Source: Chloroflexota bacterium (GTDB lineage: Bacteria; Chloroflexota; Anaerolineae; Anaerolineales; VGOW01). Taken from it: a stretch of 64,000 nucleotides of DNA. A program made the position numbers and the translations under genes. Shown piece by piece: positions 3,572 to 52,755 of the stretch. Location: positions 2,311-66,310 of the forward strand of contig VGOW01000015.1 in NCBI GenBank assembly GCA_016875735.1, given 5' to 3'. How positions within the stretch are numbered: the stretch's first letter is position 1; every line of letters starts with the position of its first letter. A model generated the notes under the pieces. That model did no database searches. It was given only the letters and a program-made list of their open reading frames with translations, and was not told where the DNA came from.

Positions 3572-3572
3572 T

Positions 3573-13417: not shown

Positions 13418-13444
13418 GAAAGTTTTACGCGGGAGAGCCGATAA
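13418..13444 (+). promoter_or_regulatory. Sigma-28 (FliA) type promoter for flgM-flgN-flgK...
   Basis: GAAAGTTT-N11-GCCGATAA against the enteric/Bacillus consensus TAAAGTTT-N11-GCCGATAA. Lies 54 nt upstream of the flgM ATG. Confidence 0.65.
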
Positions 13445-35789: not shown

Positions 35790-35824
35790 GTCGCCGCTCT
35801 CTCTGCCGCTCCGCTAAAGGTCTG

Positions 35825-35854
35825 CTCCCTCTCCCGCGGGGGCGGGAGAGGGAG
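35825..35854 (-). terminator. Hairpin downstream of the flagellin gene
   Basis: Perfect 13-bp stem CTCCCTCTCCCGC/GCGGGAGAGGGAG, about 50 nt after the fliC stop. No strong U-run. Confidence 0.45.
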
Positions 35855-35903
35855 AGGGAGAGAATTGGAGGTAATTCAGGCGGGGCGCCTGTGATGACCG
35901 GGA

Positions 35904-36758: not shown

Positions 36759-36762
36759 GGTA

Positions 36763-36808
36763 GAAAACCTCCTTGTTTTCTAGGGTGTTGGCCGGGGATC
36801 CTTCCCCG
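36763..36808 (-). promoter_or_regulatory. Two candidate CsrA-binding hairpins in the flagellin 5' leader
   Basis: Minus strand: CGGGG-AAGGAT-CCCCG (36793..36808) and GAAAAC-AAGGAG-GTTTTC (36763..36780; the loop is the Shine-Dalgarno). Each presents GGA in a hexaloop. Confidence 0.55.
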
Positions 36809-36928
36809 ATGGTTGTGATGTTCTGCCCGATTGTGTTTGCCCAGTGGCGGGCAGATTACCGCTGGGCGTTGGGGCGCTGGCCGCGTCCGTTATCACCTCC
36901 GTTTGGGTCTGTTTCGCTGTTGAGTGCA

Positions 36929-36955
36929 TTATCGGCAGGGGCAGGCCCAACTTGG
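36929..36955 (-). promoter_or_regulatory. Sigma-28 (FliA) type promoter of the flagellin gene
   Basis: Minus strand CCAAGTTG-N11-GCCGATAA, about 170 nt upstream of the fliC ATG. Confidence 0.65.
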
Positions 36956-37012
36956 GTAAGCGCGAGTAAAGGAAGTGTGAAAATGGCCGGACGCGCCATA
37001 ACGGGCTAGAAA

Positions 37013-37042
37013 CAGAGAGACGACCGATCGGTCGTCTCTCTG
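37013..37042 (-). terminator. Strong hairpin ending the glycosyltransferase operon
   Basis: Perfect 13-bp stem CAGAGAGACGACC-gatc-GGTCGTCTCTCTG, followed by TTTC on the minus strand. Starts 26 nt after the stop of the 1664-aa gene. Confidence 0.6.
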
Positions 37043-37067
37043 TGGCGGTTGAGTTTGCCCGGCCTGC

Positions 37068-40000
37068 TCATGGCATCATCCGCAGGACATGTTCTCCCAG
37101 CGCATCTAAGGCTTCAGCCACCTCTGTGCCGCCGAGGATATGCGCGGCTTGAGCGTTAGATCGGACTATTGCCACGAAATCGCTGTTGAATCGATCTCGA
37201 TAGTGTTCTAGCGCCTCGTCCACATCGTTGGCATTGAGCAAGCATTGGAAGGTTTCTAGCGCGGGCGGTTGCAGTGCGGCCTTCAATGGAGATTGCAGTA
37301 GGCGGTCGATGTGGGCGGCAAGGTTGTACAGCGCGGATGCAAGTTCAGAGTTGCCGTCCGCTTCGGCCGTGTCCGCGTTGAGTCGGACGAGCGCCAACAT
37401 TTCGGTGTCCAACTGATCGACGTGTTTGGCAAGAGCGGCGGCCAGATCATTCTGACTGAGGAGGAACTGCAATGTGTTGACCGCTCGTTCGCTGAAGGTG
37501 GGCGTGATCTGTGGAGTGAGCGAGAATGAAATGGGGTATGGCTGCCATCCATCCTCGCCATCGCCGCCCAACTGTGAGCACAAGTGCATCCATGATTGGC
37601 GAACTATCAAATTGCCCGGCTGTAAATGGATGAATGCCCGCAGGCAGTCGCCGCACTCGGCGATGCGCTGTTGTTGCAAGTGCTCTTTCGCGGCGGTCAG
37701 TATCATTTCTGGCGATTGATTCATGGTTTGGCGGTTCAGCCAAACAGTGGCGCCTGCCGGGGAGCGCCGATAAGTTACCGCGCCGACTTGTGTGTAGCTC
37801 GGATCGTTGTGGATGGCCGTGCTTTCTGGGCAACACCGCACCCGGAAACCAGCGCGCAAGGCTCGCTGAGAGAAATCCACGTCCTCGTTGCGCCGGAAGC
37901 CCAGGTTTTCGTCCCAGCCGATTGCCTCCCAAACTCGGGCGCTGACCATTAGCAGGCCACTGGTGAGATATAGATGTTCGTCCGGCTGGCCGTATGGCAG
38001 GAGGTGGTGGCCCGTTGGGCCGCCGATGGTTGTCCAATCCCAATGCCGCGTGCCATCTACGTTCAGCAACCGACCAACGAGTATGTCGTGAGACTCGAGA
38101 TGGGGTTGGAGCCCGGCATACCAGCCGGGTTGCAGAACAATATCGTCGTCGCAAAAGACGATGTGGCTGTATTTGCTGTGGGCGGCGGCGCTGTTGCGAA
38201 GGGAACTGGTATTTCCAGCGTTGGCGGCATCGGGCATTTCCAGCGAGGCCACGCCGGGCATTGGTTCTGCGATCCCGGCCACAATGATTTCGTATGAAGG
38301 AATGTCCTGTTGGTGGATGCTCCGGATCAGCCGCCGCAGTTTCTCATTGCGCTGGCCGGCCGAGATGATGCAGAAGCTGACGCCAGATGGCCGCTCGGCG
38401 CTCTTCCGCGCAGGCTCGCTTGCGCTGGCTTGGTGCAACTCCAAACCGCTGCTCAGCGCCTCGGCGCGTATGCTTTTCATCAGGTTGACTGCGCTCGCCG
38501 GAGACGTGGGCTCGGCAGGCACTCGGCCCGACTCTATTATGCTTGCCCAGCGCTCCACAACACTTGACCATGCATGACACGCTTGCCAATACTGATATCC
38601 GGCTTCTCCCATAGACTGCCGCAGGGCAGGGCGCTCCGCCAAAAAGGCCAGCGCCTGAGGGAAGTGGCGCAAGGGCACAATGAGGCCGCCAGCCTGCTCG
38701 GTCGCCGCGCCGCATTCGGGCGTGACTAACCAAGGCTTGCGATGACTCATGGCCTCCAATATGGTAACGGGCGAGACCTCACCTTTGGATGCCAGCACGA
38801 CCACGTCTGCGGCCTTCATGGCCGCGGCTACATCTTGACGAGGCAACCCCGGGATGTAGAGCGCTCGTGGGTTTTTTCGGATAGCCTCCATCACTGCGGC
38901 GCCGTACGCCGCCTCGCCGGACTCGCGGGCCGGATGTCCAATCATCACCAACCGCCAGTTATCTGGCAGTGAACGCAACGTTTCAAGCAAGCCAAGATGG
39001 TTTTTGACTGACCAGAGGTTGGCTACATGAAGAATGACGAACTCATCAGCGCCCAGCCCATGCTTAAGGCGGAAATCGCCGCTCGGTTCTATGGGCTCAG
39101 TGGCATGTGGCATGAAAGCATAAGGAATGCGATCCTCTTCGAGATATTGTGTATCCACACCGGAATGGCTGGCCGCCAGAACGGCAGTCGCATTGCGCAG
39201 AATGACGCCAAGCCGCTGGCGAAACTCGCGCCGATTGCGCCATGAGTTATAGCCATCTTGGTTGATCATCAACTGCACAATGAAACGAGTCTGTTTGGGC
39301 CACTGAGCCGATTCCACTGACCATATAAACTGGTTGCACGGATCGGCATACATGATCACAGCATCATATTGGCCAGACAAGGCTAACAGGCGCAACTGCA
39401 GCACCCACGCTGGCTCACCGCTGCGCCTCGGCTGTGTATCGAGTGGAAGTATGTGCACGCCGCGATAGATATGGTCCGCCCTATCGGGAATGGCAAATGT
39501 CGCCACCTCGACCGTGTAACCCTTATCAACCAAATGACCTCCAAGCGCCTCGACTTGCGCTTCCAACCCTCCCACAGAGGGCCAAAAATACGGGGCTGCC
39601 AGCAGCACTCTTTTTTGTTGCCTGCCCGACTCTGTTGTTGAAGCCGACACGAGAACGGATTCTTGATAGCGTGATCCGTCAAGGCCGAGCACACCCGCCC
39701 ACTCGTGCGCGACCCGACTCGCGTCGCTGGCCTCGAACAAATCGTTTTCGTGCGTGTGCGCGTCGAAGGCGACTGGCACAGGGCGAACCGCGATTGCAGC
39801 AGCCGAAGCGCTGGGTATTGCAGACTGCCCCGCCAACCCGCGAAGGTGCTCTGCAAGTCCTGAGATCGCGTCGCCGCGCGAGAGCATTGTGTCGGTCGCC
39901 CATGCTCGCAGTGATTCGCCGCTTTCGGTTGACGGTTGGCGGCAAGCGGTCAAAAAGGCATCGCGCGTGGTCAGGCGTGGCACGTGCTGATACCAGTCGG

Positions 40001-42062
40001 CGGCGAAGTCCTCGGTCAGTGGGATCGGCTCAACCATTGCGATTGGGCGCTTGGCGATGGAGGCCTCGATGAGCGAAGTTGAAAACGACGAGATGACCAC
40101 ATCACTTGCGAGAATCCATTCGCGAACCGAGCCGTCTTTGATGAAGTGTAACCCTTGCGCCGGCTGTGCGGACACATGTTTATCAAAGAAAGCCAGCACG
40201 TCTTTGCGATGAGTGGCCGGTTTCGGACGGAATATCACTTCGTGATCACCGGTTGCCCCAGCCGCCTGACACCACTGCAATAGAGCAATGAGTGAGTCGC
40301 GCGCGAAGTCTCGCATGGCGCGCATTTGTTTTGTGTCGGCTCCCCGCTCGGCGCGTTCATGCAAGTCTGAATCTCGCATGAATGCCCATCGGTAGTTTTC
40401 GGGCACGAAGACCCAGCGTCGATCTGGATGGAGCGCATATCGTTGCGCAAGAGATTGCCGGCTGGGGTATTTGTGGCGATATGGATCGAGATATAACTGA
40501 TAAGCAGGGTTGCCATTCAGAAAGATGTGATCTCCGGCTACCCCGTGTTGCAACAGATAGTCTTGGAAAAACTCTCCCCATGCGTGATGATGAACATGCC
40601 GTCGTGTGAAGTCGTCTGCCGGGGCTTTGATCTTGGTGTGGCCTTGATAGAATATCTCCTCCCATGCCAGATTGAAAAACAATGCGTTGGGCCAGCGCCG
40701 AAGAAACGTATTTGTTCCGGCATCATTAGTGCAATAGAAGTAGGGCACGGCGACCACGCGCGGCTCAAAGGCTTGAGTCAAGCGATCCACGTCAGCATAC
40801 ATGTTGCGGATTTCAACCCTCAGCCCATATTGGGTTTCCAGTATTGCCTTCACGGCGCAGGCCACATCCAATTCTCGCGCAACATGCTCGATGAGCCAAA
40901 GGATATCCACAGGTTGAGCAGTTTCAGCGGGCCACTTTGTGAGAGTTGGGCTTTGCTTATGTTGCCCCACCTGGAGGTAATGATCCCAACCCGAAACGAA
41001 CTGGCCGCTCTTCACGGCGGCGGCCCCATCGGGGTTGCAGGCCATATACGAAGACTCGTCGAATCTAGCGAAACGTGTTGGCTGTTTGGAATCAGTGTTG
41101 TTGACAACCGCTTCCCGTGAAGGATTGCGGCGAGACTCTGCTCTCGATGAGGGCCTACCCTGCATAAACGTCCAGTGGGGAAGTTGTTTGTCCAAGCCCC
41201 TTCGGGAATTGATCACCTCTGGGCGAGCGAAGATGCTGTTGATCACTTGCGGCCCGCGATCCCGCACAGCCAGCAGAGTCAAATCGGCCGCCTTGAGCAA
41301 CGATTGTATTCGCTCCAACACATCCCAGCCGCTGGCTTCGATCATGAGCGACTTGAGGCCTTGGGCCTTCAACAGGCTTTCCGCGCCCGTGAGAATGGTC
41401 TCCTCGCCGCCATCCACATCTATCTTGATGTGGTTGGGGAGCGCCGCGCCAAATTTGTTGACGAAGTCATCTGCAGTGATACACACTACCGATTGCCGAT
41501 AGGCCGGCTCAAATGCTGCCCCGCGATAGTCAACCGGCGCTCCCAGCGAATGGCTTGCCATGCCCGAATCGAGATGCGTGTAATTGAAAGTATCCAACCC
41601 CGTTCGCCCGTGCAGCGCAAGAATGTAAGGTGAGATACAGGCTTGAAACTTGTTCAAAAGCACGTTCCGGCAGAGTTGGGCATAAGTCGAAAACGCTGGC
41701 TCGAACGCGCTGATTGAGATATTGCCATGACAATGGGCGGCGGCTATCAAGGAATATGCGCCCACATTAGCGCCCACGTCCCACACCACATCGCCGGGCT
41801 CAACAAAACCTTCAATCCACTCTATCGTTTCGGGCTCCTTGCGGCAGGCCTGCGCGCGATAACGATCCATCTCGGAATCAGCGTGAAGGAAGAGAGTGTG
41901 CTTCGGGTAGTCTAGTTGAATGGTTGCCGCCAACGCTTGGCGCACCCGAATGAGCGCTGGCAGCGAGATGCCCTGCAGGCTGGCCGGCAGACGAGCCACA
42001 AGGTCTTTTTCTGCCGGGCTCAGTTCAGCATCGGAATAGATTGGTGCGTAACTTTGATGCAT
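37068..42062 (-). CDS. 1664-aa multidomain enzyme: FkbM methyltransferase + unknown Rossmann-like domain + GT4 + GT2 + paired helical C-terminal repeats
   Basis: aa 85-260 'VVWDVGANVGAYSLIAA...ISAFEPAFSTY...HIKIDVDGGEETIL' (FkbM family). aa 385-705 uncharacterised. aa 818-1180 'RVLLAAPYFWPSVGGLEAQ...ASKGEVSPVTILEAMSHRKPWL' (GT4/GT-B). aa 1228-1420 'VSFCIISAGQRNEKL...IVFCDDDIVLQPGW...NEDVDFSQRA' (GT2/GT-A). No TM helix seen. Confidence 0.8.
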   Translation of the reverse strand: MHQSYAPIYSDAELSPAEKDLVARLPASLQGISLPALIRVRQALAATIQLDYPKHTLFLHADSEMDRYRAQACRKEPETIEWIEGFVEPGDVVWDVGANVGAYSLIAAAHCHGNISISAFEPAFSTYAQLCRNVLLNKFQACISPYILALHGRTGLDTFNYTHLDSGMASHSLGAPVDYRGAAFEPAYRQSVVCITADDFVNKFGAALPNHIKIDVDGGEETILTGAESLLKAQGLKSLMIEASGWDVLERIQSLLKAADLTLLAVRDRGPQVINSIFARPEVINSRRGLDKQLPHWTFMQGRPSSRAESRRNPSREAVVNNTDSKQPTRFARFDESSYMACNPDGAAAVKSGQFVSGWDHYLQVGQHKQSPTLTKWPAETAQPVDILWLIEHVARELDVACAVKAILETQYGLRVEIRNMYADVDRLTQAFEPRVVAVPYFYCTNDAGTNTFLRRWPNALFFNLAWEEIFYQGHTKIKAPADDFTRRHVHHHAWGEFFQDYLLQHGVAGDHIFLNGNPAYQLYLDPYRHKYPSRQSLAQRYALHPDRRWVFVPENYRWAFMRDSDLHERAERGADTKQMRAMRDFARDSLIALLQWCQAAGATGDHEVIFRPKPATHRKDVLAFFDKHVSAQPAQGLHFIKDGSVREWILASDVVISSFSTSLIEASIAKRPIAMVEPIPLTEDFAADWYQHVPRLTTRDAFLTACRQPSTESGESLRAWATDTMLSRGDAISGLAEHLRGLAGQSAIPSASAAAIAVRPVPVAFDAHTHENDLFEASDASRVAHEWAGVLGLDGSRYQESVLVSASTTESGRQQKRVLLAAPYFWPSVGGLEAQVEALGGHLVDKGYTVEVATFAIPDRADHIYRGVHILPLDTQPRRSGEPAWVLQLRLLALSGQYDAVIMYADPCNQFIWSVESAQWPKQTRFIVQLMINQDGYNSWRNRREFRQRLGVILRNATAVLAASHSGVDTQYLEEDRIPYAFMPHATEPIEPSGDFRLKHGLGADEFVILHVANLWSVKNHLGLLETLRSLPDNWRLVMIGHPARESGEAAYGAAVMEAIRKNPRALYIPGLPRQDVAAAMKAADVVVLASKGEVSPVTILEAMSHRKPWLVTPECGAATEQAGGLIVPLRHFPQALAFLAERPALRQSMGEAGYQYWQACHAWSSVVERWASIIESGRVPAEPTSPASAVNLMKSIRAEALSSGLELHQASASEPARKSAERPSGVSFCIISAGQRNEKLRRLIRSIHQQDIPSYEIIVAGIAEPMPGVASLEMPDAANAGNTSSLRNSAAAHSKYSHIVFCDDDIVLQPGWYAGLQPHLESHDILVGRLLNVDGTRHWDWTTIGGPTGHHLLPYGQPDEHLYLTSGLLMVSARVWEAIGWDENLGFRRNEDVDFSQRALRAGFRVRCCPESTAIHNDPSYTQVGAVTYRRSPAGATVWLNRQTMNQSPEMILTAAKEHLQQQRIAECGDCLRAFIHLQPGNLIVRQSWMHLCSQLGGDGEDGWQPYPISFSLTPQITPTFSERAVNTLQFLLSQNDLAAALAKHVDQLDTEMLALVRLNADTAEADGNSELASALYNLAAHIDRLLQSPLKAALQPPALETFQCLLNANDVDEALEHYRDRFNSDFVAIVRSNAQAAHILGGTEVAEALDALGEHVLRMMP

Positions 42063-42113
42063 GGTGTGTGCCTTTGCTTTTGGAAATTTCCACTAACCGC
42101 GCATGATGAACCA

Positions 42114-44276
42114 TCACCCCATCTTTGCCAGGCATCGCTTCGCTTCGGTCAAGTTCTTCTGGGCGATTTCGTTGGTCGGATCGAGAGTGAGGCACAGTTC
42201 GAACCAATTCGCCGCCTCTCTCAAATCACCATCTTTTGCATACAGCACGCCCACATCGTGCGCGCTCAGCGCGTGCTTGGGGTTGATCGACAACTCGGCC
42301 ACGAACGCCTGCGCGGCGCGAAGGCTGTCGCCCACCGCCGAATACAGCGCCCCCAATTCGTAATGCAGGCCGGGCAGTTCCGGCGCGAGCGCAACTGCGC
42401 GCTCGAATTCTATGGCGCTGTGAATGAGGTCGCCGCGATCTCGCAGCGCCCGCGCGTATTGCGCCAGTTCATTGGCGCGAGAGATTGGATTGCGCGCGGA
42501 TTGGCCGAGCCGGGCGCGGACGGCATCGGTGAGGCAATTGGCGGATTCCAGCCAGCGACAAAAGTCCGGGACGCGATCCCGGTTCCCGGTGGAGGCCGCC
42601 ACCGAGTCGATGGCCGCCATCGTTTCCTCAATAAGCGACTCGGCGCTCAATCGCCTCTTGGCTTCATCCCTTTTGCCGAGCGCGAACAGCAGGAAAACGA
42701 TCATGCTCTGCGCCAGCCGTTTGCGGTCGGCGGGTTGCCGATTGTCGATAGATTGATCGAAGTGTTGAATTGCCTCCGCGAATCGGCCGGTGAACGCCAG
42801 CGACTTGGCGAGTTCGTGATGCAAACTGGCGTCGCTCATATGCAACACGGTGGCTTCTGCGCCCGCGACATCATGCGCTTCGAGTGCGCGGACAAACGAC
42901 TCGATGGCCAGATGATGATTGCTCATTCCCGCCGCCACTTGCCCGCGATACGTCCACGCCATGCGATCTTTTGGATAGAGCGCGACGGCTTCCTCGGCGC
43001 ACTGCAGCGCAGCCTGTGGCTCCCCGTTGAGGGCGTGGGCGCGAATGAGCGAGAGATGCGAGTTGGCGCGCAATCGCCAGTGCAGGCGGCTGTCGGCGAT
43101 GGCCTTTTTTAATTCGGCGATGGCTTCGGCGGGGCGGCTGAGGGTGATGAGTGTTGTGCCGAGATAATAATGCGCTATCGGGTTGTCCCATCCCGACTCG
43201 ATGCGCTGCCGCAACGCGGCGAAGTTGCGGCTGGCGCGACGCTGAACCGCCTCGCGGCTGGCATAGCCGAAGTGATACACCACCACATCGGTGTGCGCCG
43301 GCTGAAGGCCCGCCGCTTGCAGCGATGGCAAGATGCGCTCGTGGATCGCGCCCTCCCATTCGACGCCGGGCGCGTTTTGGAACAGCCATGGCTGGGCCAC
43401 AATATCTTCGCTCACGCCGTCGGCCAGCGGGCTGTGGATGTTGATGTTGTACGCTCCGGCGATGCCCGAGGCGACTGCCGCCTGTATCTTCGCCGCGCCG
43501 CCTTCTTCGATGGCCATGTCGCCGTCGAGGAACAGTACCCATTGCCCGGTGGCATGTTTGAGGGCTTCGTTTTTTGCGGCGGCAAAATCGGCGCGCCATT
43601 CGTAGCGCACAACTTTGGCGTTGAACGATTTGCCGATAGCGACCGTGTCATCGGTGGAGCCGGTGTCCACCAACACGATTTCATCGACGGCCTCCCGCGC
43701 CGATTCGAAAAGTTTGGGGAGATAGGCCGCCTCGTTCTTGGCAATGAGGCAGAGGGTGATGGTGGGCCGATCCGCCGACGAATCGGGGTGGGGCGCTGGA
43801 GATGCGGCAAACGTATGGCGGCGGGCGGCGTCCCGTTCGCGCCGGGCGATTTCGAGATTCGCGTGAATGGCTTTGAGATGCGGCGCGGCGCGCGCGGCCC
43901 GCTCGAAGTATGGGATCGCCTCGTCGTGATTTCCCAATCGAAGCCACAACACGCCGAGATTGTTTTGCGCGTGCGGGTGGTCGGGGCGCAGTTCGAGCGC
44001 GCGCTTGAATTGGCTCATGGCCTCCGAAAGATTGTTTTGCCGCACGAGGGTGAGGCCGAGATCGTTGAGGGCGTCCACGAAATGCGGGTCGGCGGCAATG
44101 GCTTCGTGGAAGGCTTTGGCCGAGCCGTCGAGTTGATTGCGTTCGCGCAGCCGCATTCCGCGATCGTAGGCTTCGCGGGCGGCGGCGACACTGCTCTGCC
44201 CATTGCCCGCTGTGAGCAGTTGCACGACGTTGTTAGGCGTGCCCGTTTTGGGAGGTTTGTGTTTGTGCTTTGACAT
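42114..44276 (-). CDS. 720-aa TPR-GT2-TPR protein glycosyltransferase-like enzyme
   Basis: N-terminal TPRs ('ALELRPDHPHAQNNLGVLWLRLGNHDEAIPYFERA'). GT2 core 'ITLCLIAKNEAAYLPKLFESAREAVDEIVLVDTGSTDDTVAI...WVLFLDGDM'. Long C-terminal TPR array. Confidence 0.8.
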   Translation of the reverse strand: MSKHKHKPPKTGTPNNVVQLLTAGNGQSSVAAAREAYDRGMRLRERNQLDGSAKAFHEAIAADPHFVDALNDLGLTLVRQNNLSEAMSQFKRALELRPDHPHAQNNLGVLWLRLGNHDEAIPYFERAARAAPHLKAIHANLEIARRERDAARRHTFAASPAPHPDSSADRPTITLCLIAKNEAAYLPKLFESAREAVDEIVLVDTGSTDDTVAIGKSFNAKVVRYEWRADFAAAKNEALKHATGQWVLFLDGDMAIEEGGAAKIQAAVASGIAGAYNINIHSPLADGVSEDIVAQPWLFQNAPGVEWEGAIHERILPSLQAAGLQPAHTDVVVYHFGYASREAVQRRASRNFAALRQRIESGWDNPIAHYYLGTTLITLSRPAEAIAELKKAIADSRLHWRLRANSHLSLIRAHALNGEPQAALQCAEEAVALYPKDRMAWTYRGQVAAGMSNHHLAIESFVRALEAHDVAGAEATVLHMSDASLHHELAKSLAFTGRFAEAIQHFDQSIDNRQPADRKRLAQSMIVFLLFALGKRDEAKRRLSAESLIEETMAAIDSVAASTGNRDRVPDFCRWLESANCLTDAVRARLGQSARNPISRANELAQYARALRDRGDLIHSAIEFERAVALAPELPGLHYELGALYSAVGDSLRAAQAFVAELSINPKHALSAHDVGVLYAKDGDLREAANWFELCLTLDPTNEIAQKNLTEAKRCLAKMG

Positions 44277-45540
44277 ATCGAATCGCTTGCAGAAGATCGG
44301 GGTCGTTGTGCCCGGCGGCGACGGCGATGTTGAAATGAGTCAGGGCCTGCGCCGGGCGATTGGTTTCGGCGCACAGAAATCCGAGTTGACGGTGGGCGTC
44401 GGCGTGCGATGGATCGATGCCGAGCGCGGTGTCGAAAGCCATTTCGGCTTCGGCGTGGTTGCCCATAAGGCTGTGCGCCAATCCAAATGAGCAATACACG
44501 TCGGGCGTGCGCAAGCCGTCGTCGAGCACGCGATGAAAATGGTTGAGGGCTTCGGGCAGGCGGCCAAGATAGGTGAGGCATTCGGCGAGCTGCAAACGCA
44601 AATGCTCGTCGGAGCGGTCGAGCACTGCGCCCTCTGCCGCAGATTGGCGCGGAAGGCCGAGCGCGCGCTCCATTGCGGGCACGGCTAACTCCACCCGATC
44701 CAACTGCACGTACACATTGGCGGCGGCGCTCCAGATCATACGGTCGCCGGGGAAGGCGCGGGTGGCGTCTTCCACCCGCCGCAGAGTCGCCTCGCGGCTT
44801 TCGAGGCCGGGCGAGAGGTTGATGAGCATGGTGTGGGCGTTGGCTTTCATGCGCCGCTCGGCGCTGGGCGAGGTGATCACCCATACCAATTTTTTCAGCG
44901 CCTCCATCTTGCGGCCCACGCGCACGTAAGCGCGAGCCAGATAGTATTGCGAGAGCGTGTCGTTCGGGTCGGCCTGCGATTCTAAAATTCGCATGTCGCG
45001 TTCGCCGCGCGCGGCCATCGCCGCATCGGTCATGTAGCCGAAGTGCATCACCACGATATCGGTCATTTGCGGCGGCATCTTGCGGGCGATGAGCGATGGC
45101 AGAATGTCTTCGTGGACTCGGCCAATGAATTCGACTCCCGGCGCGCGCTTGAACAGCCACGGCTGTGAAATGATCTCGGTGGTGACGCCGTCGGCGCGCG
45201 GGCTGTGGATGTTGAGGTAATACGATCCGGCTGAGCCGGACTCGGCGGCGCGGCGAATCTTTTCCGCGCCCCCGGCCGCCACTTCCATATCGGCGTCGAG
45301 CATGAGCGCCCACTCGCCGCTGGCGCGGGCGATGGCCGCGTTCTTTGCCGCGGCGAAATCGTCGCGCCATTCGAAGCGGTGGACGATTGCGCCGAGCGTT
45401 TGGGCCAGCGCAACGGTGCCGTCGGCGGAGCCGGTGTCCACCAGCACAATTTCATCGGCGGCGCCTCGCGCAGAGTCGAAGAGCCGCCGCAGGTTGGCGG
45501 CTTCGTTCTTGGCGATCAGGCATAGCGAAATGCGAGTCAT
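44233..45540 (-). CDS. 435-aa GT2-TPR glycosyltransferase (paralog of the preceding gene's core)
   Basis: 'ISLCLIAKNEAANLRRLFDSARGAADEIVLVDTGSADGTVAL...WALMLDADME' followed by TPRs. ATGA overlap with the upstream 1884-aa gene. Confidence 0.8.
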   Translation of the reverse strand: MTRISLCLIAKNEAANLRRLFDSARGAADEIVLVDTGSADGTVALAQTLGAIVHRFEWRDDFAAAKNAAIARASGEWALMLDADMEVAAGGAEKIRRAAESGSAGSYYLNIHSPRADGVTTEIISQPWLFKRAPGVEFIGRVHEDILPSLIARKMPPQMTDIVVMHFGYMTDAAMAARGERDMRILESQADPNDTLSQYYLARAYVRVGRKMEALKKLVWVITSPSAERRMKANAHTMLINLSPGLESREATLRRVEDATRAFPGDRMIWSAAANVYVQLDRVELAVPAMERALGLPRQSAAEGAVLDRSDEHLRLQLAECLTYLGRLPEALNHFHRVLDDGLRTPDVYCSFGLAHSLMGNHAEAEMAFDTALGIDPSHADAHRQLGFLCAETNRPAQALTHFNIAVAAGHNDPDLLQAIRYVKAQTQTSQNGHA

Positions 45541-48500
45541 GCGGCGACCAGCGCTTCTCGGAGGGCGGCAATCGCTGGATGCGCCGGTTCGATTTTTTCG
45601 AGATTATTCAGCGCCATGCGCGCCGCCTCCGCGTCGCCGAGCTCGAGCCCCAGCCTGCCGAAGGCGATGAGCACATCGGGATTCTTCGGGGCCAGCCCGA
45701 CGGCGCGTTTCACGTTCTCGGCGGCGTCGGCGTAACGCTCTTGGGCGCGATACAACTCCACCAGATTCAACAGCGAGTCCACGTTGTCGGGTTCGAGTTC
45801 CAGCGCGTTGCGAAAAGCTTGCTCGGCGGCTTCGCCTTCGCCGTTTTGGTACAGCGCGACTCCGAGTTGATTGCGCAGGCCAATCTCAGCCGGGGCGAGT
45901 TGAACAGCGCGAGCGAAGGCGCGCGCGGCGGAGCCGTAATCGGCTTTGGCCAGCAGGGTGGAGCCGAGCGCGGCGTGGCCGCTGACGAGGTCGGGATACT
46001 CGCTAGTGAGAGTCTCGAAGATCATCATCGCCCGATCCCATTGCTGGGCAGAGGCGGCTTGTGTCCCATCGGCAAACAAAGCCTTCACCCGCTCCTGTGC
46101 TTTGTGCAGGGCATCGAACTCTGCGCCCTCGTCATCGGCCAGCGCATCGTGGTGAACATAGGCATCCACCGCCACCGCCAACTTGAATCCCGCCACCGCG
46201 ACTCGCGCGAAGTATTCCCACAACGACTCGGCGAACGGCAAGTCTTCGCGCAATGGCCCCACCGCGCGATGAGCCTTGCCATTGAACAGGGCGCAGAAGC
46301 CGCCGAGATAGGCGGCCTCCTTCACTTCGCCGTCATGTTTGCGCGCCCATTGTTTGGCGAACTGCCGCATCGGGCGGCCCGTGCCGTCGTATTTGCTTTT
46401 GATCGACTGCGGCGCCGGGGCGCGATTGGAGACCGGCCCCACGATGGCAATCGAAGAATCGCTGTCGAGCGCCAACCTCATTCGCTCCAGCCATCCGGCA
46501 GTCACAATCACATCGCTGGAAAGGAGCGCAACGGGATCTTCATTGGCGGCGCTCAGCGCTTCATTGAGCGCGCGCGCCAGCGATTGCTCGCTGGATCGCA
46601 CCCGCCAATCGTTCGCCGCTTGCGGCGGGGTGAAAATGGGCGACCCGGCGGAGACGAGGGTGATGTCCAGCGGACAGTCCGTATTGTTCTGAAGCGATGA
46701 CCAGGCTTCGGCGGACGGCTTGCCGGTGACGGCGACCACTGTCGCCAAACGTTTCATTTCGGGTTGCCGTTCACGCCGGATGGGGCGGCCTCTCACTTCG
46801 AGCAATCGCGCGCGGACTCGTTGCGCGGCGGTATCCCACGAGAAGTTCCGATGGATATGCTCGCTGGCGCGTTTCCCTTTGCTTCGCGCCTCAACCGGAT
46901 TCTCGAACACGTGCCGCATCCACTGCGCCGTCGCCGCGCGATCCGGCTCGAACACAAAAGGCTTGCCCGCCAATTCCCACTGGCCGATTCGATTCTCGGC
47001 CAACTCTTGCCGCGCCGCCGGAATGAGATAGGCGTTGGAGTCGTCGCAGAAATCGAGGCACGCGCCCGCGCCGGTGACGATGACCGGCAGGCCGCAGGCC
47101 ATCGCTTCGGCGATAGGCAGGCCAAAGCCCTCGCCGCGATACGGATGCACGAGGCAATCGCAAGCGGTGTACAGGTCGGGAATGTCGGCGGGCGCGATGG
47201 GATCGCTGAGATACAGGATCTCGGGCGCGTCGGGGTTGGCGGCGATTTGCTTGATCTGCTCGGCGAGGTTCTGGCCTTTGTAAAACGAGTCGCCGCCCAT
47301 ATCTTTGATCACGAGGCACACATCGTCTTGGGCGGTGAAGGCGCGCAAGTAGGCGTCGAGCAGCACATCGGGGCCTTTGCGCCAAATGGTGCCGCCGACG
47401 AAAAGGAACTTGAACTTCTTTTGCGTGGGCAGGGCCATGCGCGGCGCATTGGGGTTGAACAGACTCGCGTCGATGCCGTTGGGCACCACATGCACCTGAT
47501 CGGCAGGCAGGCCGCTTTCGATGTAACACTGGCGCACAAAGTTGCTGGGCGTCCACACCTCATCCACTTGCGGCTTCATCGCCTCGATCCATTTCTTGGG
47601 GATGCCGCCGTATTCCCACGGCTGAATGATCACCCAATGGCCTTCGGCGGGCGGGGCAAAGTTGGGCGGCCACTGATGGCGCACATGCACATCGGCGCGG
47701 GCCAGGGGCCGGTTCAATCGCTCATTGATGAGGTCGAAACGCGGATCGGCTTCGGGGCCGAACTGATGTAACTCGTACGGGATGATCGAGAGCGAGGTGT
47801 TTTCGTCCTGCGCCAGCCGGATGCACAATTCGCGGTTGACCAGCGCCAGCGAATGATGCACGAATTGTGATCCTTCCCAGCGCACGGCGAGAGGCCGGGC
47901 AAGGGGCTTAAGCTCCTTGCCTCCGTTCAGTTCGGCGTGAATGGCGCGGAGGCGGTCGGCGGCAATACGGCTGACCGCGCTCCATTGCCACTTGGCAATC
48001 ATGTCTTGCCGCGCTCTCGCGCCGATGGAGGCCGCTTCTGCCGGATGCTCACGCGTCCAGCGCAGAAGTTTGGTCAGGTGTGGCACTGATGGCTCGGCCC
48101 ACTGCTGGCCGCGATAGAAGGCGAACTCCATTCGGTCGTCAATCGTCGCCAGCCGCTCAACGTCGAGCAGCAGGCTGTTGCCGTCGTTCATGAATTCGAG
48201 ATTGCCGCTCCAGCGCGTGGCGATCACTGGCAACCCGCAGGCCATGGCCTGCATGTGAGGCCGCCCCCAACCTTCGCCGCGCGAGGGGGCCACGTACACA
48301 GTCGCCGCCGCGAAGAGGCGGGGCAAGTCGGCTTCGGGCACTTGCTCGCCCAACACAATGATGGGCGCGAGTTCGGAACGCTGGTATTTCAAATCATTGG
48401 TAATGAAATTGTCGATGCGCCGCTCGATCTCTGCGGTGTTGTCCACCGACTCGATAGCGTTGACCGGATAGGCGCGAATGACGAGACTCACATCGTCGGC

Positions 48501-51191
48501 GGCGCTGAACGCCTGCGCCCACGCGCGGAGCAGAACATCCCAACCTTTGCGATACACCCACTCGAAGATCGAAAGGAACACTGTGCCGCGCGCGCCCGGA
48601 ATGGGCAGGGGGTTGAGGCCGGGCTTGAATATGTCGGTGTCGATGCCGCCGGGAACTTTGAAGAGACGAGTCGTTACCCCCGCGCGCCGAAAGGTTTCCA
48701 TGTTGAAGTCGGTCGGCGCCCACACCTCATCCATTTGATTGCAGGCCGCCACCCATTCGGCCGGCAGGCCGTCGGTCTCGAACATCGCCCGCCCGATGTT
48801 GTACGAAGCGTTAGAGTTGCGCTGAAAGGCGTAGGCAGGAAAATGAATTACGCTGATCGATCCCGGCTGGGCAGGGGTGGAAATCATCGCGTCGAGTTGC
48901 GATAGCGTGGCCGGGTCGAGTTGTTTGCGGAACGTTTCCGAGTGGCGGCCAATGGCGCGGGCGGTGGGCGGCAGGCCGTGGGCGCGAAGGCCGATGAGGA
49001 AGTGACGCGCCTCGTCGGCGTAGCCGCTGGGATCGAAGATGGGCGCGCGCCACACCACTGCCGGATTCTCGAGCGGCGGCGCCGAGCGAGTCCGGGTTGC
49101 GGAGCGGCCAGTGTGCTTGGCCCGCCCCAGCGCTTTGATGCGCTCGATTATCCACTCTGCGGTGCGTGTCGGAGTCCAGGCCATTTTGATATCTCGGTGA
49201 GCCCGCAATCCCACGGCGCGGGAGTGGTCGCGATCATCGAAGACTTCGCGCAAGAGTGCGGCAGTGTGCTTGATCGAAGGCTGCGCCCAGCGTTGATCGG
49301 AAGTGTAAAACGGATTCTCCCGAGTCTGGTCGGCGTCGACCGGAACCAACCCCTCGACATTAATGAGATAACTATTCTCATCTGTCATGAAATCGAGATG
49401 ACTGCTCCAGCGTGTGCCGATGACAGGTTTGCCCATAGCCATGGCTTCCATATATGGAATGCCCCATCCCTCGCCGCGTGTAGGCAATACAAAGGCGTCG
49501 GCGGCGGCAAATAGAGACGGCAGAGATGCGTCGGGGATGAAGTCATCGAGCAGAATGATGGGCGGAATGCGCTTGGGGTTATGACCGAGTCGGCGAATAA
49601 AGGCATCGATGCGCTGAGGAATGGGAGGGGTTTTGATGCGGTCGGGGTACGTGCGCAGGTATAGGCAAACGTCGTCGTTCGCCGTGAACGCCGAAAGATA
49701 GGCCTCGATGAGGATGTCCCATCCCTTTCGCTTATTCCATTGAAACACCGAGAGGAAGTTGAAGCCGCGCCGTTGGGCCAGCGCCATCGGTTGGACGCGC
49801 GACGGATCATAAACTGTGCTGTCTATTCCAAAAGGGATCACCTGTATACGTTCTGCGCTTACACCGGAAGCGGCAAACAACTCTCGATTGAAAGAACTCG
49901 GCACCCACACTTCATCCATGCGGTTGAGCGAATCTGCCCAGCCGGAAGGCAGGCGGTCGGTTTCCCACATGGTGAGGCCGATATGGGAATCGAAGGAAGG
50001 GCTTTCTTGGCAAAGGCGGGCGAAGATATCCTTGCCGCTCCAAGAGACTGGGGGATGAAAATAGACACCCACTCCCCTTTGCACACGATTGTCCAATAGG
50101 CGATTCCAGAACTGCACTGCCTGTTGATCTTGGTTCAATCCTTGCGCAAAGTCCTTGTTCACTGAGAGCGGGTAAACTTGGATTAGGGTGCCGCAACGAT
50201 CCAGCGCCGGGAGAGTGTGGCGCGAGAGCCAGGCGTAGCCGCTGAAGTCGAAAACGTTGGCCACCCAACCAATAGAGAGGGCGGGCGAATCGGATACTGC
50301 ATCCAACGACCGACTCGTCGGTTGTCCTGCAAGGGCTCCGGCTTGGCCCGAATCGTCTCGCTGAAAACTCGCTCGGGGTGCGGGCGTGGCGGCTTCTGGT
50401 TTTGGGACGGCGACGAGGCGTACTATTGTTTCCGCTTGCTCGTCATTTGGATTGAGTTCGAGCGCCCGCCGCGCTGATGCTTCGGCTTCTGCCACAAATC
50501 CACTGTGCCATAGCACTGCGGCCAAATTACTGTGCCCCGGCGCGTATGCTGGATGTGACTGTGTGGCCCTGACAAACTCACGGCGAGCCAAATCTACCTC
50601 TCCGACGCGGAGCGAAATGTTGCCGAGGGCTACAAGCAATTGTGGATCATCGGGCACGATGCCAAGCGCCTGCGTGAGCGCATCGCGAGCCGCGGCGAAA
50701 TCGCCCATAGCGAAATACTCGTCGGCTTGCCTTCGCAATTCTTCGCGCACAATGTTGAGAATGTATTGCAGATGATCGGCTTCGAGGGATGGGCCTTTTT
50801 CGACGGCGGTTTGATAGTTGATCGCCAACATGGCCTTGAACACATCGCCCACTTCGGCCATGCGTTGGCGGAGAAGAATGGCGGGCGTGTTCGAGGCGAG
50901 CAACTCGGCGAGGAATCCGGCGGCGTGATCCACATCGGCTACCGAGACGGCAACACTGCCGCCAAGCATTTGCTCGATGGCCGCGGCGAGTTGTTGCAGT
51001 TGATCGGGATCGGGCGGGGCAGGCGGATCGGTTGTGACGGCTACGTTGCGCAGTAGATGTTGGTAGGGTGGGCTCGCAGGATAGGCTCTCGCTGGATCGT
51101 CATTCTTGCCAATGTTGCCATGGCCCGCTCGGGCTTTCATCGAGCGGTGCCATTTCACGAGATTATCCCAATTGAAATGACGAGTTTCCAT
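45537..51191 (-). CDS. 1884-aa multidomain enzyme: helical motif + TPR + three tandem GT4 modules + GT2-like domain + TPR
   Basis: Three GT-B modules with repeated motifs: 'MDEVWVPSSF...LPTRGEGWGIPYMEAMAMGKPVIGT', 'MDEVWAPTDF...APSRGEGWGRPHMQAMACGLPVIAT', 'VDEVWTPSNF...HPYRGEGFGLPIAEAMACGLPVIVT'. Then 'VALLSSDVIVTAGWLERM...IAIVGPVSN' (GT-A-like). TPRs at both ends. No TM helix seen. Confidence 0.8.
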   Translation of the reverse strand: METRHFNWDNLVKWHRSMKARAGHGNIGKNDDPARAYPASPPYQHLLRNVAVTTDPPAPPDPDQLQQLAAAIEQMLGGSVAVSVADVDHAAGFLAELLASNTPAILLRQRMAEVGDVFKAMLAINYQTAVEKGPSLEADHLQYILNIVREELRRQADEYFAMGDFAAARDALTQALGIVPDDPQLLVALGNISLRVGEVDLARREFVRATQSHPAYAPGHSNLAAVLWHSGFVAEAEASARRALELNPNDEQAETIVRLVAVPKPEAATPAPRASFQRDDSGQAGALAGQPTSRSLDAVSDSPALSIGWVANVFDFSGYAWLSRHTLPALDRCGTLIQVYPLSVNKDFAQGLNQDQQAVQFWNRLLDNRVQRGVGVYFHPPVSWSGKDIFARLCQESPSFDSHIGLTMWETDRLPSGWADSLNRMDEVWVPSSFNRELFAASGVSAERIQVIPFGIDSTVYDPSRVQPMALAQRRGFNFLSVFQWNKRKGWDILIEAYLSAFTANDDVCLYLRTYPDRIKTPPIPQRIDAFIRRLGHNPKRIPPIILLDDFIPDASLPSLFAAADAFVLPTRGEGWGIPYMEAMAMGKPVIGTRWSSHLDFMTDENSYLINVEGLVPVDADQTRENPFYTSDQRWAQPSIKHTAALLREVFDDRDHSRAVGLRAHRDIKMAWTPTRTAEWIIERIKALGRAKHTGRSATRTRSAPPLENPAVVWRAPIFDPSGYADEARHFLIGLRAHGLPPTARAIGRHSETFRKQLDPATLSQLDAMISTPAQPGSISVIHFPAYAFQRNSNASYNIGRAMFETDGLPAEWVAACNQMDEVWAPTDFNMETFRRAGVTTRLFKVPGGIDTDIFKPGLNPLPIPGARGTVFLSIFEWVYRKGWDVLLRAWAQAFSAADDVSLVIRAYPVNAIESVDNTAEIERRIDNFITNDLKYQRSELAPIIVLGEQVPEADLPRLFAAATVYVAPSRGEGWGRPHMQAMACGLPVIATRWSGNLEFMNDGNSLLLDVERLATIDDRMEFAFYRGQQWAEPSVPHLTKLLRWTREHPAEAASIGARARQDMIAKWQWSAVSRIAADRLRAIHAELNGGKELKPLARPLAVRWEGSQFVHHSLALVNRELCIRLAQDENTSLSIIPYELHQFGPEADPRFDLINERLNRPLARADVHVRHQWPPNFAPPAEGHWVIIQPWEYGGIPKKWIEAMKPQVDEVWTPSNFVRQCYIESGLPADQVHVVPNGIDASLFNPNAPRMALPTQKKFKFLFVGGTIWRKGPDVLLDAYLRAFTAQDDVCLVIKDMGGDSFYKGQNLAEQIKQIAANPDAPEILYLSDPIAPADIPDLYTACDCLVHPYRGEGFGLPIAEAMACGLPVIVTGAGACLDFCDDSNAYLIPAARQELAENRIGQWELAGKPFVFEPDRAATAQWMRHVFENPVEARSKGKRASEHIHRNFSWDTAAQRVRARLLEVRGRPIRRERQPEMKRLATVVAVTGKPSAEAWSSLQNNTDCPLDITLVSAGSPIFTPPQAANDWRVRSSEQSLARALNEALSAANEDPVALLSSDVIVTAGWLERMRLALDSDSSIAIVGPVSNRAPAPQSIKSKYDGTGRPMRQFAKQWARKHDGEVKEAAYLGGFCALFNGKAHRAVGPLREDLPFAESLWEYFARVAVAGFKLAVAVDAYVHHDALADDEGAEFDALHKAQERVKALFADGTQAASAQQWDRAMMIFETLTSEYPDLVSGHAALGSTLLAKADYGSAARAFARAVQLAPAEIGLRNQLGVALYQNGEGEAAEQAFRNALELEPDNVDSLLNLVELYRAQERYADAAENVKRAVGLAPKNPDVLIAFGRLGLELGDAEAARMALNNLEKIEPAHPAIAALREALVAA

Positions 51192-51240
51192 GCTGTCTCT
51201 CCATGCAGGTTATTCAACGACCGACAAAGCGGTCGCCGCC

Positions 51241-51273
51241 AGTGTATTACCGGGGGCGATTGTCGTCAGTAAA
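51241..51273 (-). promoter_or_regulatory. Promoter-like element TTTACTGACG-N17-TACACT upstream of the 1884-aa GT gene
   Basis: Minus strand agTTTACTGACGacaatcgcccccggtaaTACACT, about 50 nt upstream of ATG 51191. Confidence 0.4.
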
Positions 51274-51331
51274 CTTCGGGTAAACCCTGCGTTAAGTTGA
51301 GGTGAATTGGCTAAAGTTTTGCGCGGGGCGG

Positions 51332-51946
51332 TTACACGGCGGCGCGCTCGGCGAGGATGAGCAGGGCTTGGGCGCGGCGGGGGTCGCCTTCGTGTTCGGC
51401 TTGCGAGGCGGCCAGAGCAATGATATCGGGCAAGTGATGCAAAACGTCGTCGAGGCGTTGGCGCATGGCGGCGGAGGGGTCGGGGGCGCACATGATTTCT
51501 TCGAGGAGGAGGGTTGCTTGCCGAGCGTCGCCGCGAGTGATGTTGAGGGCGGGCGTGGAACGGAGCGGCTCGACTGAGCTCGCCGAAGTCGGCGCGGCGT
51601 GGCGAAGTGTGTCGAGATAGGCTTGTGTTTGCTGTGCGCCGACGGGGCATCCGGATTGGATGAGCCACGGGGAGGATGGGCCGCCAGCGACTCCGGCGGC
51701 GAGGTTGCGGCGGAGCCGCGCGCGCGAAGGGTCGAGGCCGACTTGGCTGGCGCGTTGGTAAAAAACGTCGGCGGCGGGCGTGTCGTTGGCGGCGAGGTAA
51801 CAGTCGCCCAGCGTGAGCAGGGTGTCGAGGTCTGTCGGATCGGATTCGAGCAATCGAAAGAGGAGCCGGATCGCTTCGACGGGTTTGTTGGCGGTGAGTT
51901 GGGCGAGGGCGCGCTCGCGCAGAAGACGATGATCGGTCAGAGTCAT
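51332..51946 (-). CDS. 204-aa TPR-like/helical protein
   Basis: ATG 51946. 'KPVEAIRLLFRLLESDPTDLDTLLTLGDCYLAANDTPAADVFYQRA' is TPR-like. The C-terminal about 60 aa share a helical motif with both giant GT proteins. The longer tracked ORF (to 52402) overlaps the FGE-like gene and is rejected. Confidence 0.5.
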   Translation of the reverse strand: MTLTDHRLLRERALAQLTANKPVEAIRLLFRLLESDPTDLDTLLTLGDCYLAANDTPAADVFYQRASQVGLDPSRARLRRNLAAGVAGGPSSPWLIQSGCPVGAQQTQAYLDTLRHAAPTSASSVEPLRSTPALNITRGDARQATLLLEEIMCAPDPSAAMRQRLDDVLHHLPDIIALAASQAEHEGDPRRAQALLILAERAAV

Positions 51947-51951
51947 GCGTG

Positions 51952-52755
51952 TTACCCGATGGCGATGCGAAAGCCGATGGTGGTCAAGGCCACGTCGGGG
52001 GGAGCGCCTTCGCGCGCGGCGCAGCGAGCGAGGCGGTGCGAATACATGTACGACCCGCCGCGCACGGTGCGCGGTCCTTGGGCGGCCGGGTCTTCGCGCC
52101 CGTCGTTGGCATCGTAAGGGTAGGGAGCGAACAGACTGTTTGTCCACTCCCAAGAGTTGCCGCTGAGGCCCACCACACCGAAAGGGCTGTCGCTGGCCGG
52201 GGAGTGCAGGAAAACCGGCGTGGTGACTCGGGTGTAGGCCTCGATAGTGTTGATGCGATAGGGGTTGAAGTCGGCGCCCCACGGAAAGAGGCGGGCGTCG
52301 TCGCCGCGGGCGGCGCGTTCCCACTCGGCTTCGGTGGGCAGTCGGCAATTCAGGCCAGTGATGCCGCTGAGCCACGCGCAGTATTTTTGCGCGGTGTGCC
52401 ACGATGCGGACACCACCGGGTGCTCGCCTTGCCCTTCAGCGTAAATGAGGCCTGTCCAACTGCGCGGGAAAGGCGCGCCGGTGGATTCGACGAAGGCAAG
52501 ATATTGGACGTTGGTGACTGCGGTGAGGCCGATGGCGAACGCCGGGACGTGGACCTTGTGTTGAGGCTGCTCATCGCGAAAGAAATCGAAACGCTCCGAG
52601 CGCGGCCAGTCCGGCTCCGATTCGAGTTCGATGATTTGAAGGTCGCTCGTGCCCAACGTGACGGCGCCATCCGGGATGCGAACGGCTTTTATTCCGGTGC
52701 GATCATTCGGCAAATCAAATATCGTGCTGGCGACAGTCTGCACGCTAAGAGTCAT
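51952..52755 (-). CDS. FGE-sulfatase (SUMF1/EgtB-C/PvdO-like) domain protein
   Basis: ATG 52755. 'HKVHVPAFAIGLTAVTNVQYLAFVESTG','CRLPTEAEWERAARG','GNSWEWTNS','VRGGSYMYSHRLARCAAR...IGFRIAI' are typical of the family, but the canonical FGE Cys pair is not evident. Confidence 0.75.
   Translation of the reverse strand: MTLSVQTVASTIFDLPNDRTGIKAVRIPDGAVTLGTSDLQIIELESEPDWPRSERFDFFRDEQPQHKVHVPAFAIGLTAVTNVQYLAFVESTGAPFPRSWTGLIYAEGQGEHPVVSASWHTAQKYCAWLSGITGLNCRLPTEAEWERAARGDDARLFPWGADFNPYRINTIEAYTRVTTPVFLHSPASDSPFGVVGLSGNSWEWTNSLFAPYPYDANDGREDPAAQGPRTVRGGSYMYSHRLARCAAREGAPPDVALTTIGFRIAIG

Follow-up and report, generated by a model that had tools for sequence, protein, structure and literature searches.

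The stretch of DNA analysed here (the window, 64,000 nt on one contig of a probable Chloroflexota bacterium) is, as a whole, one flagellar and chemotaxis super-locus, and at 37068-52755, between cheA and the flagellin gene fliC, it holds an island of six intact open reading frames (ORFs) rich in glycosyltransferase (GT) and TPR domains. The initial annotation had read this island, located between the che operon and fliC, as a candidate cytoplasmic machine for flagellin hyper-glycosylation. The six co-directional ORFs were verified, all of them on the minus strand, and their position is as described, but the che operon is on the plus strand and runs divergently. In the order of transcription, the island and the features that follow it are:

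51952-52755, minus strand: FGE-sulfatase-domain protein, 267 aa, first island gene (PF03781, E = 1.7e-43)
51332-51946, minus strand: stand-alone TPR protein, 204 aa (TPR_19, E = 9e-7)
45537-51191, minus strand: 1884-aa fused enzyme (Pfam scans of the full length and by segment)
44233-45540, minus strand: 435-aa GmaR-like candidate flagellin glycosyltransferase, GT2 (aa 4-187) then TPR
42114-44276, minus strand: 720-aa TPR-GT2-TPR enzyme (Pfam, phmmer, AlphaFold2 model, synteny)
37068-42062, minus strand: 1664-aa fused enzyme (Pfam, NCBIfam, AlphaFold2)
37013-37042, minus strand: perfect 30-nt palindrome, then TTTCT, just past the stop codon of the 1664-aa gene
36929-36936, minus strand: exact sigma-28 -10 box GCCGATAA upstream of fliC, with a weak -35 match
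35904-36758, minus strand: fliC, flagellin, 284 aa, the proposed acceptor (Pfam Flagellin_N and Flagellin_C)

The FGE-like and 204-aa TPR genes are separated by 5 nt, and a gap of 140 nt precedes the 1884-aa gene. The short overlaps reported earlier for the middle genes were measured as 4 nt between the 1884-aa and 435-aa genes and 44 nt between the 435-aa and 720-aa genes; 51 nt then lead to the 1664-aa gene, and fliC, followed by fliD, starts 309 nt downstream of the end of the island. The Pfam profile search suggested as a check was run on whole proteins and on ten segments, and it yielded calls to the GT4, GT2, FkbM and TPR families, with a sum of four GT4 domains, four GT2 domains, one FkbM methyltransferase and many TPRs. 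This agrees with the about eight GT domains originally counted (four GT4, four GT2-like), to which we add a ninth, GT-B-fold region in the 1664-aa protein, for a total of ~9 GT-like domains. The motifs for catalysis are intact in three of the four GT4 domains and in at least three of the four GT2 domains: three GT4 domains have EX7E, the exception being the middle one of the 1884-aa protein, which has EX7Q, and the DxD of the GT2 domains reads DAD in the 435-aa, DGD in the 720-aa and DDD in the 1664-aa protein.

None of the island proteins contains a segment resembling a transmembrane helix, the highest 19-residue Kyte-Doolittle mean being 1.64, within a GT4 core, and the Pfam and NCBIfam searches on the same proteins returned no flippase, polymerase, oligosaccharyltransferase, priming transferase, export or nucleotide-sugar enzyme, in line with what had been noticed before. 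The sole Wzy_C_2 match in these proteins (E = 0.0014, below cut-off) falls on a TPR. Genes for an ABC transporter, Wzx/Wzy, a priming transferase or a ligase were found neither in the island nor in the rest of the 64-kb window; polysaccharide export genes elsewhere in the 64 kb and Pse/Leg (nonulosonic-acid) synthesis genes in the window were likewise missing. Glycosylation of the lipid-carrier or oligosaccharyltransferase type was rejected on the grounds that the priming transferase, the flippase, the PglL/PglB families and transmembrane segments are all lacking, and a Maf-type system was rejected because no island protein matched MAF_flag10/DUF115 in Pfam. A role in anti-phage defence as a "conflict-system GT4" was discarded as well: PADLOC matched none of the proteins (0/6), and the match to PF20706 (GT4-conflict) is explained by the likeness of GT4 domains in general.

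The 435-aa and 720-aa proteins had the same best catalytic match in phmmer searches of the PDB. This is GmaR, the flagellin O-GlcNAc transferase of Listeria, which consists of a ~180-residue catalytic domain, TPRs, a linker and an antirepressor (PMC9638930). The GmaR catalytic domain (22ao) matched the GT2 domain of the 435-aa protein at E = 4.6e-23, with the DxD motif (LDADME) aligned, and that of the 720-aa protein at E = 8.8e-24; for both proteins the VDTGSxD and DxD motifs align, and SunS and ThuS come next, their NCBIfam matches being sub-threshold. In Pfam, the 435-aa protein has GT2 at 1.4e-19 and TPR families above threshold. Across the 720-aa family the nucleotide-binding and DxD motifs are invariant. 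The AlphaFold2 model of the 720-aa protein, built from 12 homologues, has a predicted local distance difference test (pLDDT) score of 84.6 and is an all-helical repeat region past aa 341; in Foldseek its top matches were SunS and ThuS (TM-score ~0.67 on the target, root-mean-square deviation 3.8 Å), followed by the TPR superhelices of the O-GlcNAc transferase OGT and of SPINDLY, all of them enzymes that attach sugars straight to polypeptides. As modelled, the 720-aa protein would have the fold of a peptide-directed glycosyltransferase. Just the 204-residue catalytic chain of GmaR was matched in the PDB searches: its linker and antirepressor (the 141-637 part) gave no match at E <= 1e-3, and the 435-aa protein is too short to accommodate a linker and antirepressor of the GmaR type. 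The window ORFs that were scanned with Pfam or NCBIfam gave no MogR-type match. The 720-aa protein forms the conserved core of the island and is likely to be the initiating flagellin O-glycosyltransferase.

The 1884-aa protein begins with a TPR region (aa 150-253), followed by GT4-a (~301-690), GT4-b (691-1080), GT4-c (1081-1470), a GT2 domain (1471-1700) and a second TPR region (1701-1884), with EX7E at aa 574 and 1354 and EX7Q at aa 973. With aa 300-1080 as query, 650 proteins were collected at E <= 1e-20 among 8000 candidates scored, and fused multi-GT proteins of 1000-3000 aa are common among the metagenomic relatives.

In the 1664-aa protein, an FkbM domain (aa 92-245) is followed by the GT-B-fold region (366-800), a GT4 domain (811-1200), a GT2 domain (~1237-1425, with DDD) and a helical C-terminus. 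The ~430-residue stretch 366-800 has no Pfam match, and its hits to the BFO_1060 glycosyltransferase family and to TIGR04396, named "surface carbohydrate biosynthesis protein", are both sub-threshold; AlphaFold2 (pLDDT 79.5) confidently gives it a two-Rossmann GT-B fold, for which Foldseek returned UDP-GlcNAc 2-epimerases, WaaG and TarL. The hypothesis that this domain is an orphan was rejected after an exhaustive search, which recovered for the TIGR04396/BFO_1060-type domain a family of ~1000 representatives, mostly stand-alone proteins of ~440 aa. The C-terminus (residues ~1470-1664; 37071-37655, minus strand) consists of two ~65-residue helical repeats, LLxxNDxxxALxxH...VRxNAxxA, with no family match, which could be a non-TPR module for partner binding.

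The flagellin itself was aligned with those of the relatives. Its central segment, aa 145-215, is composed of 30% Ser/Thr, versus 11-16% elsewhere, and the protein has no Cys. Ahead of its gene, the initial annotation had placed a strong hairpin and a sigma-28 promoter, of which the palindrome and the exact -10 box are both present and the -35 element is a weak match. The 53-nt stretch holding the palindrome folds at -26.1 kcal/mol (z = -5.4) and is likely the terminator of the island transcript; a consensus terminator scan did not report the hairpin at 37013-37042, because its T-run is short. A sigma-70 promoter scan of 35700-37300 gave nothing.

Where labels are given, the nearest relatives of the island proteins come from metagenome-assembled genomes (MAGs) of Chloroflexota or Anaerolineales, hence the probable assignment of the window to Chloroflexota. 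Of the six close relatives described next, three bear one of these two labels. Five syntenic loci (L001-L005, the last labelled Chloroflexota) share a common layout, namely divergent cheA, FGE-like gene, small TPR gene, variable cassette, orthologue of the 720-aa protein (645-728 aa), flagellin, fliD, flaG, fliS and sortase, the edge from cheA to the small TPR gene being visible in L002 and partly in L004, as the other contigs end short of it. The orthologue of the 720-aa protein is directly upstream of flagellin in all five, with 49-55% identity in L001-L004 and 36% in L005, and in L006, an Anaerolineales chromosome, it (38%) is one ORF away. What precedes it varies. L002 and L004 encode a PglD-like acetyltransferase, a DegT aminotransferase and a 1350-aa methyltransferase-GT2-TPR-GT2 protein; L003 encodes a protein of more than 3009 aa with all the domains of the 1884-aa enzyme and methyltransferases; and L005, in which a WsaF_C match was also obtained, has a GT4, a GT/methyltransferase, a kinase-like and an 868-aa GT4/GT2 protein. 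L006 shows three sugar epimerase/dehydratases, an O-methyltransferase, an 860-aa GT10-FkbM fusion and a GT2-TPR protein, then the 720-aa orthologue, a 510-aa ORF and flagellin. In a tblastn survey, a domain like GT4-c was present in all five close loci with 56-69% identity. The conserved core thus comprises fliC, a domain of the GT4-c type and either one or two GmaR-like proteins with the GT2-TPR layout.

The association extends to more distant organisms. In contigs drawn from one genome per species, the 80 best distant homologues of the 720-aa family show 24-41% identity and come from many phyla. A fliC or fliD gene lies no further than 10 kb away for 28 of them, a lower bound given that many contigs are short, and far above the ~1% or less that we would roughly guess for a random 20-kb stretch. 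In the cultured Desulfacinum infernum DSM 9756 (L055), fused GT/methyltransferase/sulfotransferase proteins of 963, 989 and 782 aa are followed by two GT2-TPR proteins, a GT4, a 280-aa flagellin and fliD. In a Brocadiales MAG (L089, 979-21095), fliW, csrA and a GT2-TPR gene precede a 2230-aa protein with B12/radical-SAM, methyltransferase and GT2 domains, a 1153-aa triple GT4, five consecutive GT2-TPR genes and flagellin. Whether the islands of relatives are linked to flagellar genes was one of the points on which the initial annotation had let its proposal stand or fall, and for the core enzymes the outcome favours it.

A contig binned as Sphingomonadaceae (L011; 6189-12265 and 346-1188) contains counterparts of GT4-b and GT4-c of the 1884-aa enzyme (65% identity) and of FliC (50% identity), along with two GT2-TPR genes; this suggests either a horizontal transfer across phyla or a mistake in the binning.

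Several lines of evidence, namely the homology to GmaR, the modelled fold, the synteny with fliC and the setting within a flagellar cluster, speak for the direct, carrier-free glycosylation of flagellin proposed in the initial annotation, and we estimate at about 75% the probability that the locus is a flagellin O-glycosylation island. From the domains, homology, fold, synteny and missing membrane and export parts described above, we infer the acceptor, the order of the steps, the donor sugars and the glycan length as follows. The two GmaR-family GT2-TPR enzymes, chiefly the 720-aa one, would use their TPRs to capture FliC while it is unfolded or free of chaperone, and would start the glycan by attaching a sugar to Ser/Thr residues within aa 145-215. 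Next, the 1884-aa enzyme, with its own TPRs on board, would lengthen the glycan on the protein by means of its GT4 and GT2 domains. Further sugars may come from the 1664-aa enzyme, whose FkbM domain may serve to O-methylate the chain or to cap it. All the steps would occur in the cytoplasm, before flagellar type III export and with no lipid carrier, and the donors would be housekeeping nucleotide sugars, which would explain an island devoid of sugar-synthesis genes. The term hyper-glycosylation and the number of sugars are extrapolated from the domain count alone.

A bolder form of this proposal is possible, and we regard it as doubtful: the island would be a cytoplasmic assembly line for a glycan of ~9 or more sugars, or a repeating one, methyl-capped and built on a flagellin reduced to the D0/D1 domains, where it would replace the missing outer domains as the surface of the filament; besides, the TPR/multi-GT cassette would be a portable module re-targeted to the subunit gene downstream of it, flagellin here and a prepilin-type gene in Planctomycetota-like contigs.

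A number of observations weigh against the reading as a flagellin O-glycosylation island. The cassette is not intrinsically flagellin-specific, because tandem-GT4 homologues of the 1884-aa enzyme (47-48% identity) in Planctomycetota-like contigs adjoin a prepilin-type gene and not flagellin: in L087 (10001-20018), L088 and L090 they lie, together with TPR-GT proteins, directly upstream of the gene for a 272-aa prepilin-type protein (N_methyl and SBP_bac_10), and dTDP-sugar genes precede the cassette. As many as 52 of the 80 distant GT2-TPR homologues have no flagellin within 10 kb, and the proposal assigns no definite role to the FGE-like and small TPR proteins. The 1664-aa enzyme is the weakest link. 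It has no TPR; the GC content at third codon positions of its gene is 0.63, versus 0.71-0.83 in the neighbours; and by tblastn nothing close to its domains turned up in related loci, with just partial matches to FkbM and GT2 (29-30%) in L006 and L055. Moreover, the gene occupies an interval, between the 720-aa gene and fliC, that is empty in L001-L005, and it looks like a recent insertion or acquisition. A word-index search with the 1664-aa protein gave a single relative, P0200 (2663 aa; L086, 10001-17992), in which a TIGR04396-like GT-B plus GT2 module is repeated ~3 times and which has no flagellin within 10 kb. It is surrounded by genes for a ketoacyl synthase III (KAS III), an AMP-ligase, a short-chain dehydrogenase/reductase, a methyltransferase and an N-acetyltransferase, that is, by a sugar-modification (sugar-acylation) locus of the acyl-carrier/ketoacyl-synthase type, a neighbourhood reminiscent of the Pseudomonas viosamine island.

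As an alternative, the enzymes could act on another protein or surface structure, such as the S-layer, sortase substrates, pilins or the targets of a general OGT-like system, with the adjacency to fliC being incidental or regulatory. The prepilin-linked cassettes, the homologues away from flagellin and the presence of a sortase gene within the same flagellar operon all go in this direction; we consider it unlikely nevertheless, since an orthologue of the 720-aa protein stands beside or near flagellin in six close relatives and in several other phyla, the best catalytic homologue, GmaR, is a proven flagellin glycosyltransferase, and the island holds no gene for an alternative acceptor. A division of labour can also be imagined, in which only the GmaR-like proteins act on flagellin and an envelope polysaccharide, free or lipid-linked, is the product of the large GT4/GT2/FkbM enzymes. 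Fused GT/methyltransferase enzymes of like style, WbdA, WbdD and WsaE, do build O-antigens and S-layer glycans, L005 offers its WsaF_C match and a kinase-like gene beside a methyltransferase, and the 1664-aa protein, with no TPR, has its relative P0200 in a non-flagellar sugar locus. Such a division is nonetheless quite improbable in view of the transporter, Wzx/Wzy, priming transferase and ligase genes missing from the window, the TPRs at both ends of the 1884-aa enzyme, the retention of GT4-c beside the GmaR-like genes and fliC in all the close relatives, and the translational coupling to the GmaR-like genes. As GmaR is bifunctional (PMC9638930, PMC3150276), the GT2-TPR proteins might, finally, be mainly regulators of flagellar genes, corresponding to its antirepressor half, and not enzymes; this we hold to be very improbable, with the linker/antirepressor part unmatched in the PDB searches, no MogR-type match among the scanned window ORFs, and nucleotide-binding and DxD motifs that are invariant in the family.

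The known systems most similar to the island are compared with it in what follows. Like GmaR, the island GT2-TPR proteins are soluble, with an N-terminal GT-A/GT2 domain (E ~1e-23, DxD kept) followed by TPRs, and the flagellin is short, ~285 aa (PMC9638930); unlike it, they have no linker/antirepressor match, the 720-aa protein carries one more TPR block at its N-terminus, and there are two paralogues here, coupled to enzymes with several GT domains, while a single GlcNAc is all that GmaR transfers. Flagellin O-glycans are known to form by sequential transfer without an oligosaccharyltransferase and to reach 7-11 sugars, 11 in P. aeruginosa PAK (PMC3958885); in Pseudomonas, fgt1/fgt2 lie upstream of fliC, VioT has 1173 aa, and the glycans of flagellins can include methylated sugars (PMC3927599). 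The Pseudomonas islands (fgt1/fgt2, VioT/OrfN, orfA-N) are similar to ours in having GT genes of variable content directly upstream of fliC (PMC3927599, PMC3958885), and glycans like those known there, assembled stepwise and carrier-free on Ser of the central flagellin, with several sugars and in part O-methylated, would be made here too. They differ in their dedicated sugar-synthesis genes and mostly single-domain enzymes, where this island has 3-5 fused catalytic domains plus TPRs and no sugar-synthesis genes.

Binding of flagellin by a TPR domain has been shown by experiment for FlmG and Maf-1, in which glycosylation requires this domain, and trans-acting adaptors such as GlfM have been described (PMC7591256; bioRxiv 10.1101/2023.12.03.569772). 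Similarly to Caulobacter FlmG, the 1884-aa protein has a TPR (aa 150-253) and then a GT-B domain, a likeness of architecture only (PMC7591256), and separate TPR flagellin-binding and catalytic domains are common to FlmG and Shewanella Maf-1 (bioRxiv 10.1101/2023.12.03.569772). Those enzymes, however, have one catalytic domain and transfer pseudaminic or legionaminic acid, while here there is no MAF_flag10 and there are no nonulosonic-acid genes in the window. SunS and ThuS, the best structural matches of the 720-aa model, would share with it a GT-A domain followed by helical repeats that recognise a peptide, but they S-glycosylate Cys of small bacteriocin peptides, and FliC is devoid of Cys. 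FkbM methyltransferases have been reported in the flagellin glycosylation islands of Geobacillus (PMC5109656), which resemble the present one in being variable and apparently horizontally acquired as well as in this methyltransferase family (PMC5109656); by contrast, they centre on Maf and nonulosonic-acid pathways, and PMC5109656 mentions neither TPR nor GmaR.

The sequential cytoplasmic O-glycosylation of flagellin with multiple, methylated sugars by enzymes encoded upstream of fliC is already the accepted model in Pseudomonas and Aeromonas; as carrier-free stepwise transfer is known, the island is an extension of it and not a new mechanism. The remark in the initial annotation that it was not aware of a described system with enzymes of this size and domain count overstates the novelty, as VioT reaches 1173 aa and multi-GT proteins are common. 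What is new is the extent of the fusion (3-5 catalytic domains plus TPRs per polypeptide, and larger in relatives), the recurrence of GmaR-like paralogues in pairs or series, the phylum, Chloroflexota, and the low-GC3 1664-aa gene specific to the window. In the library covered, a full-text literature search found no paper linking flagellin glycosylation with Chloroflexi, and one for multidomain flagellin glycosyltransferases returned nothing. Since fused enzymes of like style are common in metagenomic data, we regard the locus as one member of a widespread but uncharacterised variant and not as a unique machine.

The two genes at the upstream edge of the island have orthologues in the close loci. 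The length of 267 aa for the FGE-like protein is counted from the ATG chosen in the initial annotation; the mechanical ORF extends to 52944, and the relatives have 263 aa. Orthologues with 67-69% identity occupy the same edge in L002 and L004, where the small TPR protein (234-235 aa) comes after them, and another, with 51% identity, is beside a GT2-TPR pair in L078. The solved structure nearest to the FGE-like protein is ToxD (7spq, E = 9e-35), not a formylglycine-generating enzyme (FGE). Its C-terminal motif, RGGSYMYSHRLARCAAR, contains a single Cys when read by eye, and it seems to lack the catalytic cysteine pair of the FGE motif; it is probably not a true FGE. The 204-aa TPR protein is a candidate adaptor or substrate-binding factor.

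Beyond the island, other features of the window are:

3453-4454, 15753-16967 and 18554-19864, plus strand: an HDOD protein and two response-regulator/HD-GYP-type (HD_5) proteins, among flagellar genes
10041-10820: FliA-like sigma factor gene
13437-13444, plus strand: second exact GCCGATAA box, just upstream of flgM
13498-13800, plus strand: gene of FlgM (anti-sigma-28)
17841-18317 and 18292-18543, plus strand: fliW and csrA
30808-32163, minus strand: 451-aa ORF with no Pfam or NCBIfam match
32313-32975, minus strand: sortase gene inside the flagellar operon, directly past fliS
36759-36830, minus strand: fliC 5' leader, with the GGGGAAGGAUCCCC hairpin, GGA in its loop, and an AAGGAGG Shine-Dalgarno
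53320-55566, plus strand: cheA, divergent from the island

The window contains fliL, fliM, fliP, fliR, flhB, flhA, the FliA-type sigma factor gene and flgM, the rod and hook genes, flgK, flgL, fliW, csrA and fliK, then ORFs that we read from their size and position as fliI, fliH and fliG, followed by fliF, the sortase gene, fliS, flaG, fliD and fliC and, past the island, by cheA, cheD, cheB, cheR and a gene for a methyl-accepting chemotaxis protein. A leader hairpin with GGA, together with fliW and csrA in the same window, suggests a translational switch of the Bacillus type, involving FliW, CsrA and flagellin. The HDOD and HD_5 genes hint at a control of motility by cyclic-di-GMP. The position of the sortase gene in the flagellar operon is kept in L001-L004, and no obvious substrate was identified for the enzyme. 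The 451-aa ORF is kept too (456-460 aa), between the sortase gene and flgB/C, in L002-L004; its YNEPN and IGTEGG motifs are reminiscent of clan GH-A glycoside hydrolases, and it could be a flagellar peptidoglycan hydrolase in place of FlgJ.

If our interpretation is correct, flagellin glycosylation of the GmaR type would reach uncultured environmental phyla, and the enzymes for elongation could be fused into polypeptides of 3-5 domains with their own substrate-binding TPRs, which would be useful for acceptor targeting and for cytoplasmic protein glyco-engineering. The related island of Desulfacinum infernum DSM 9756 makes this idea testable in a cultured organism.

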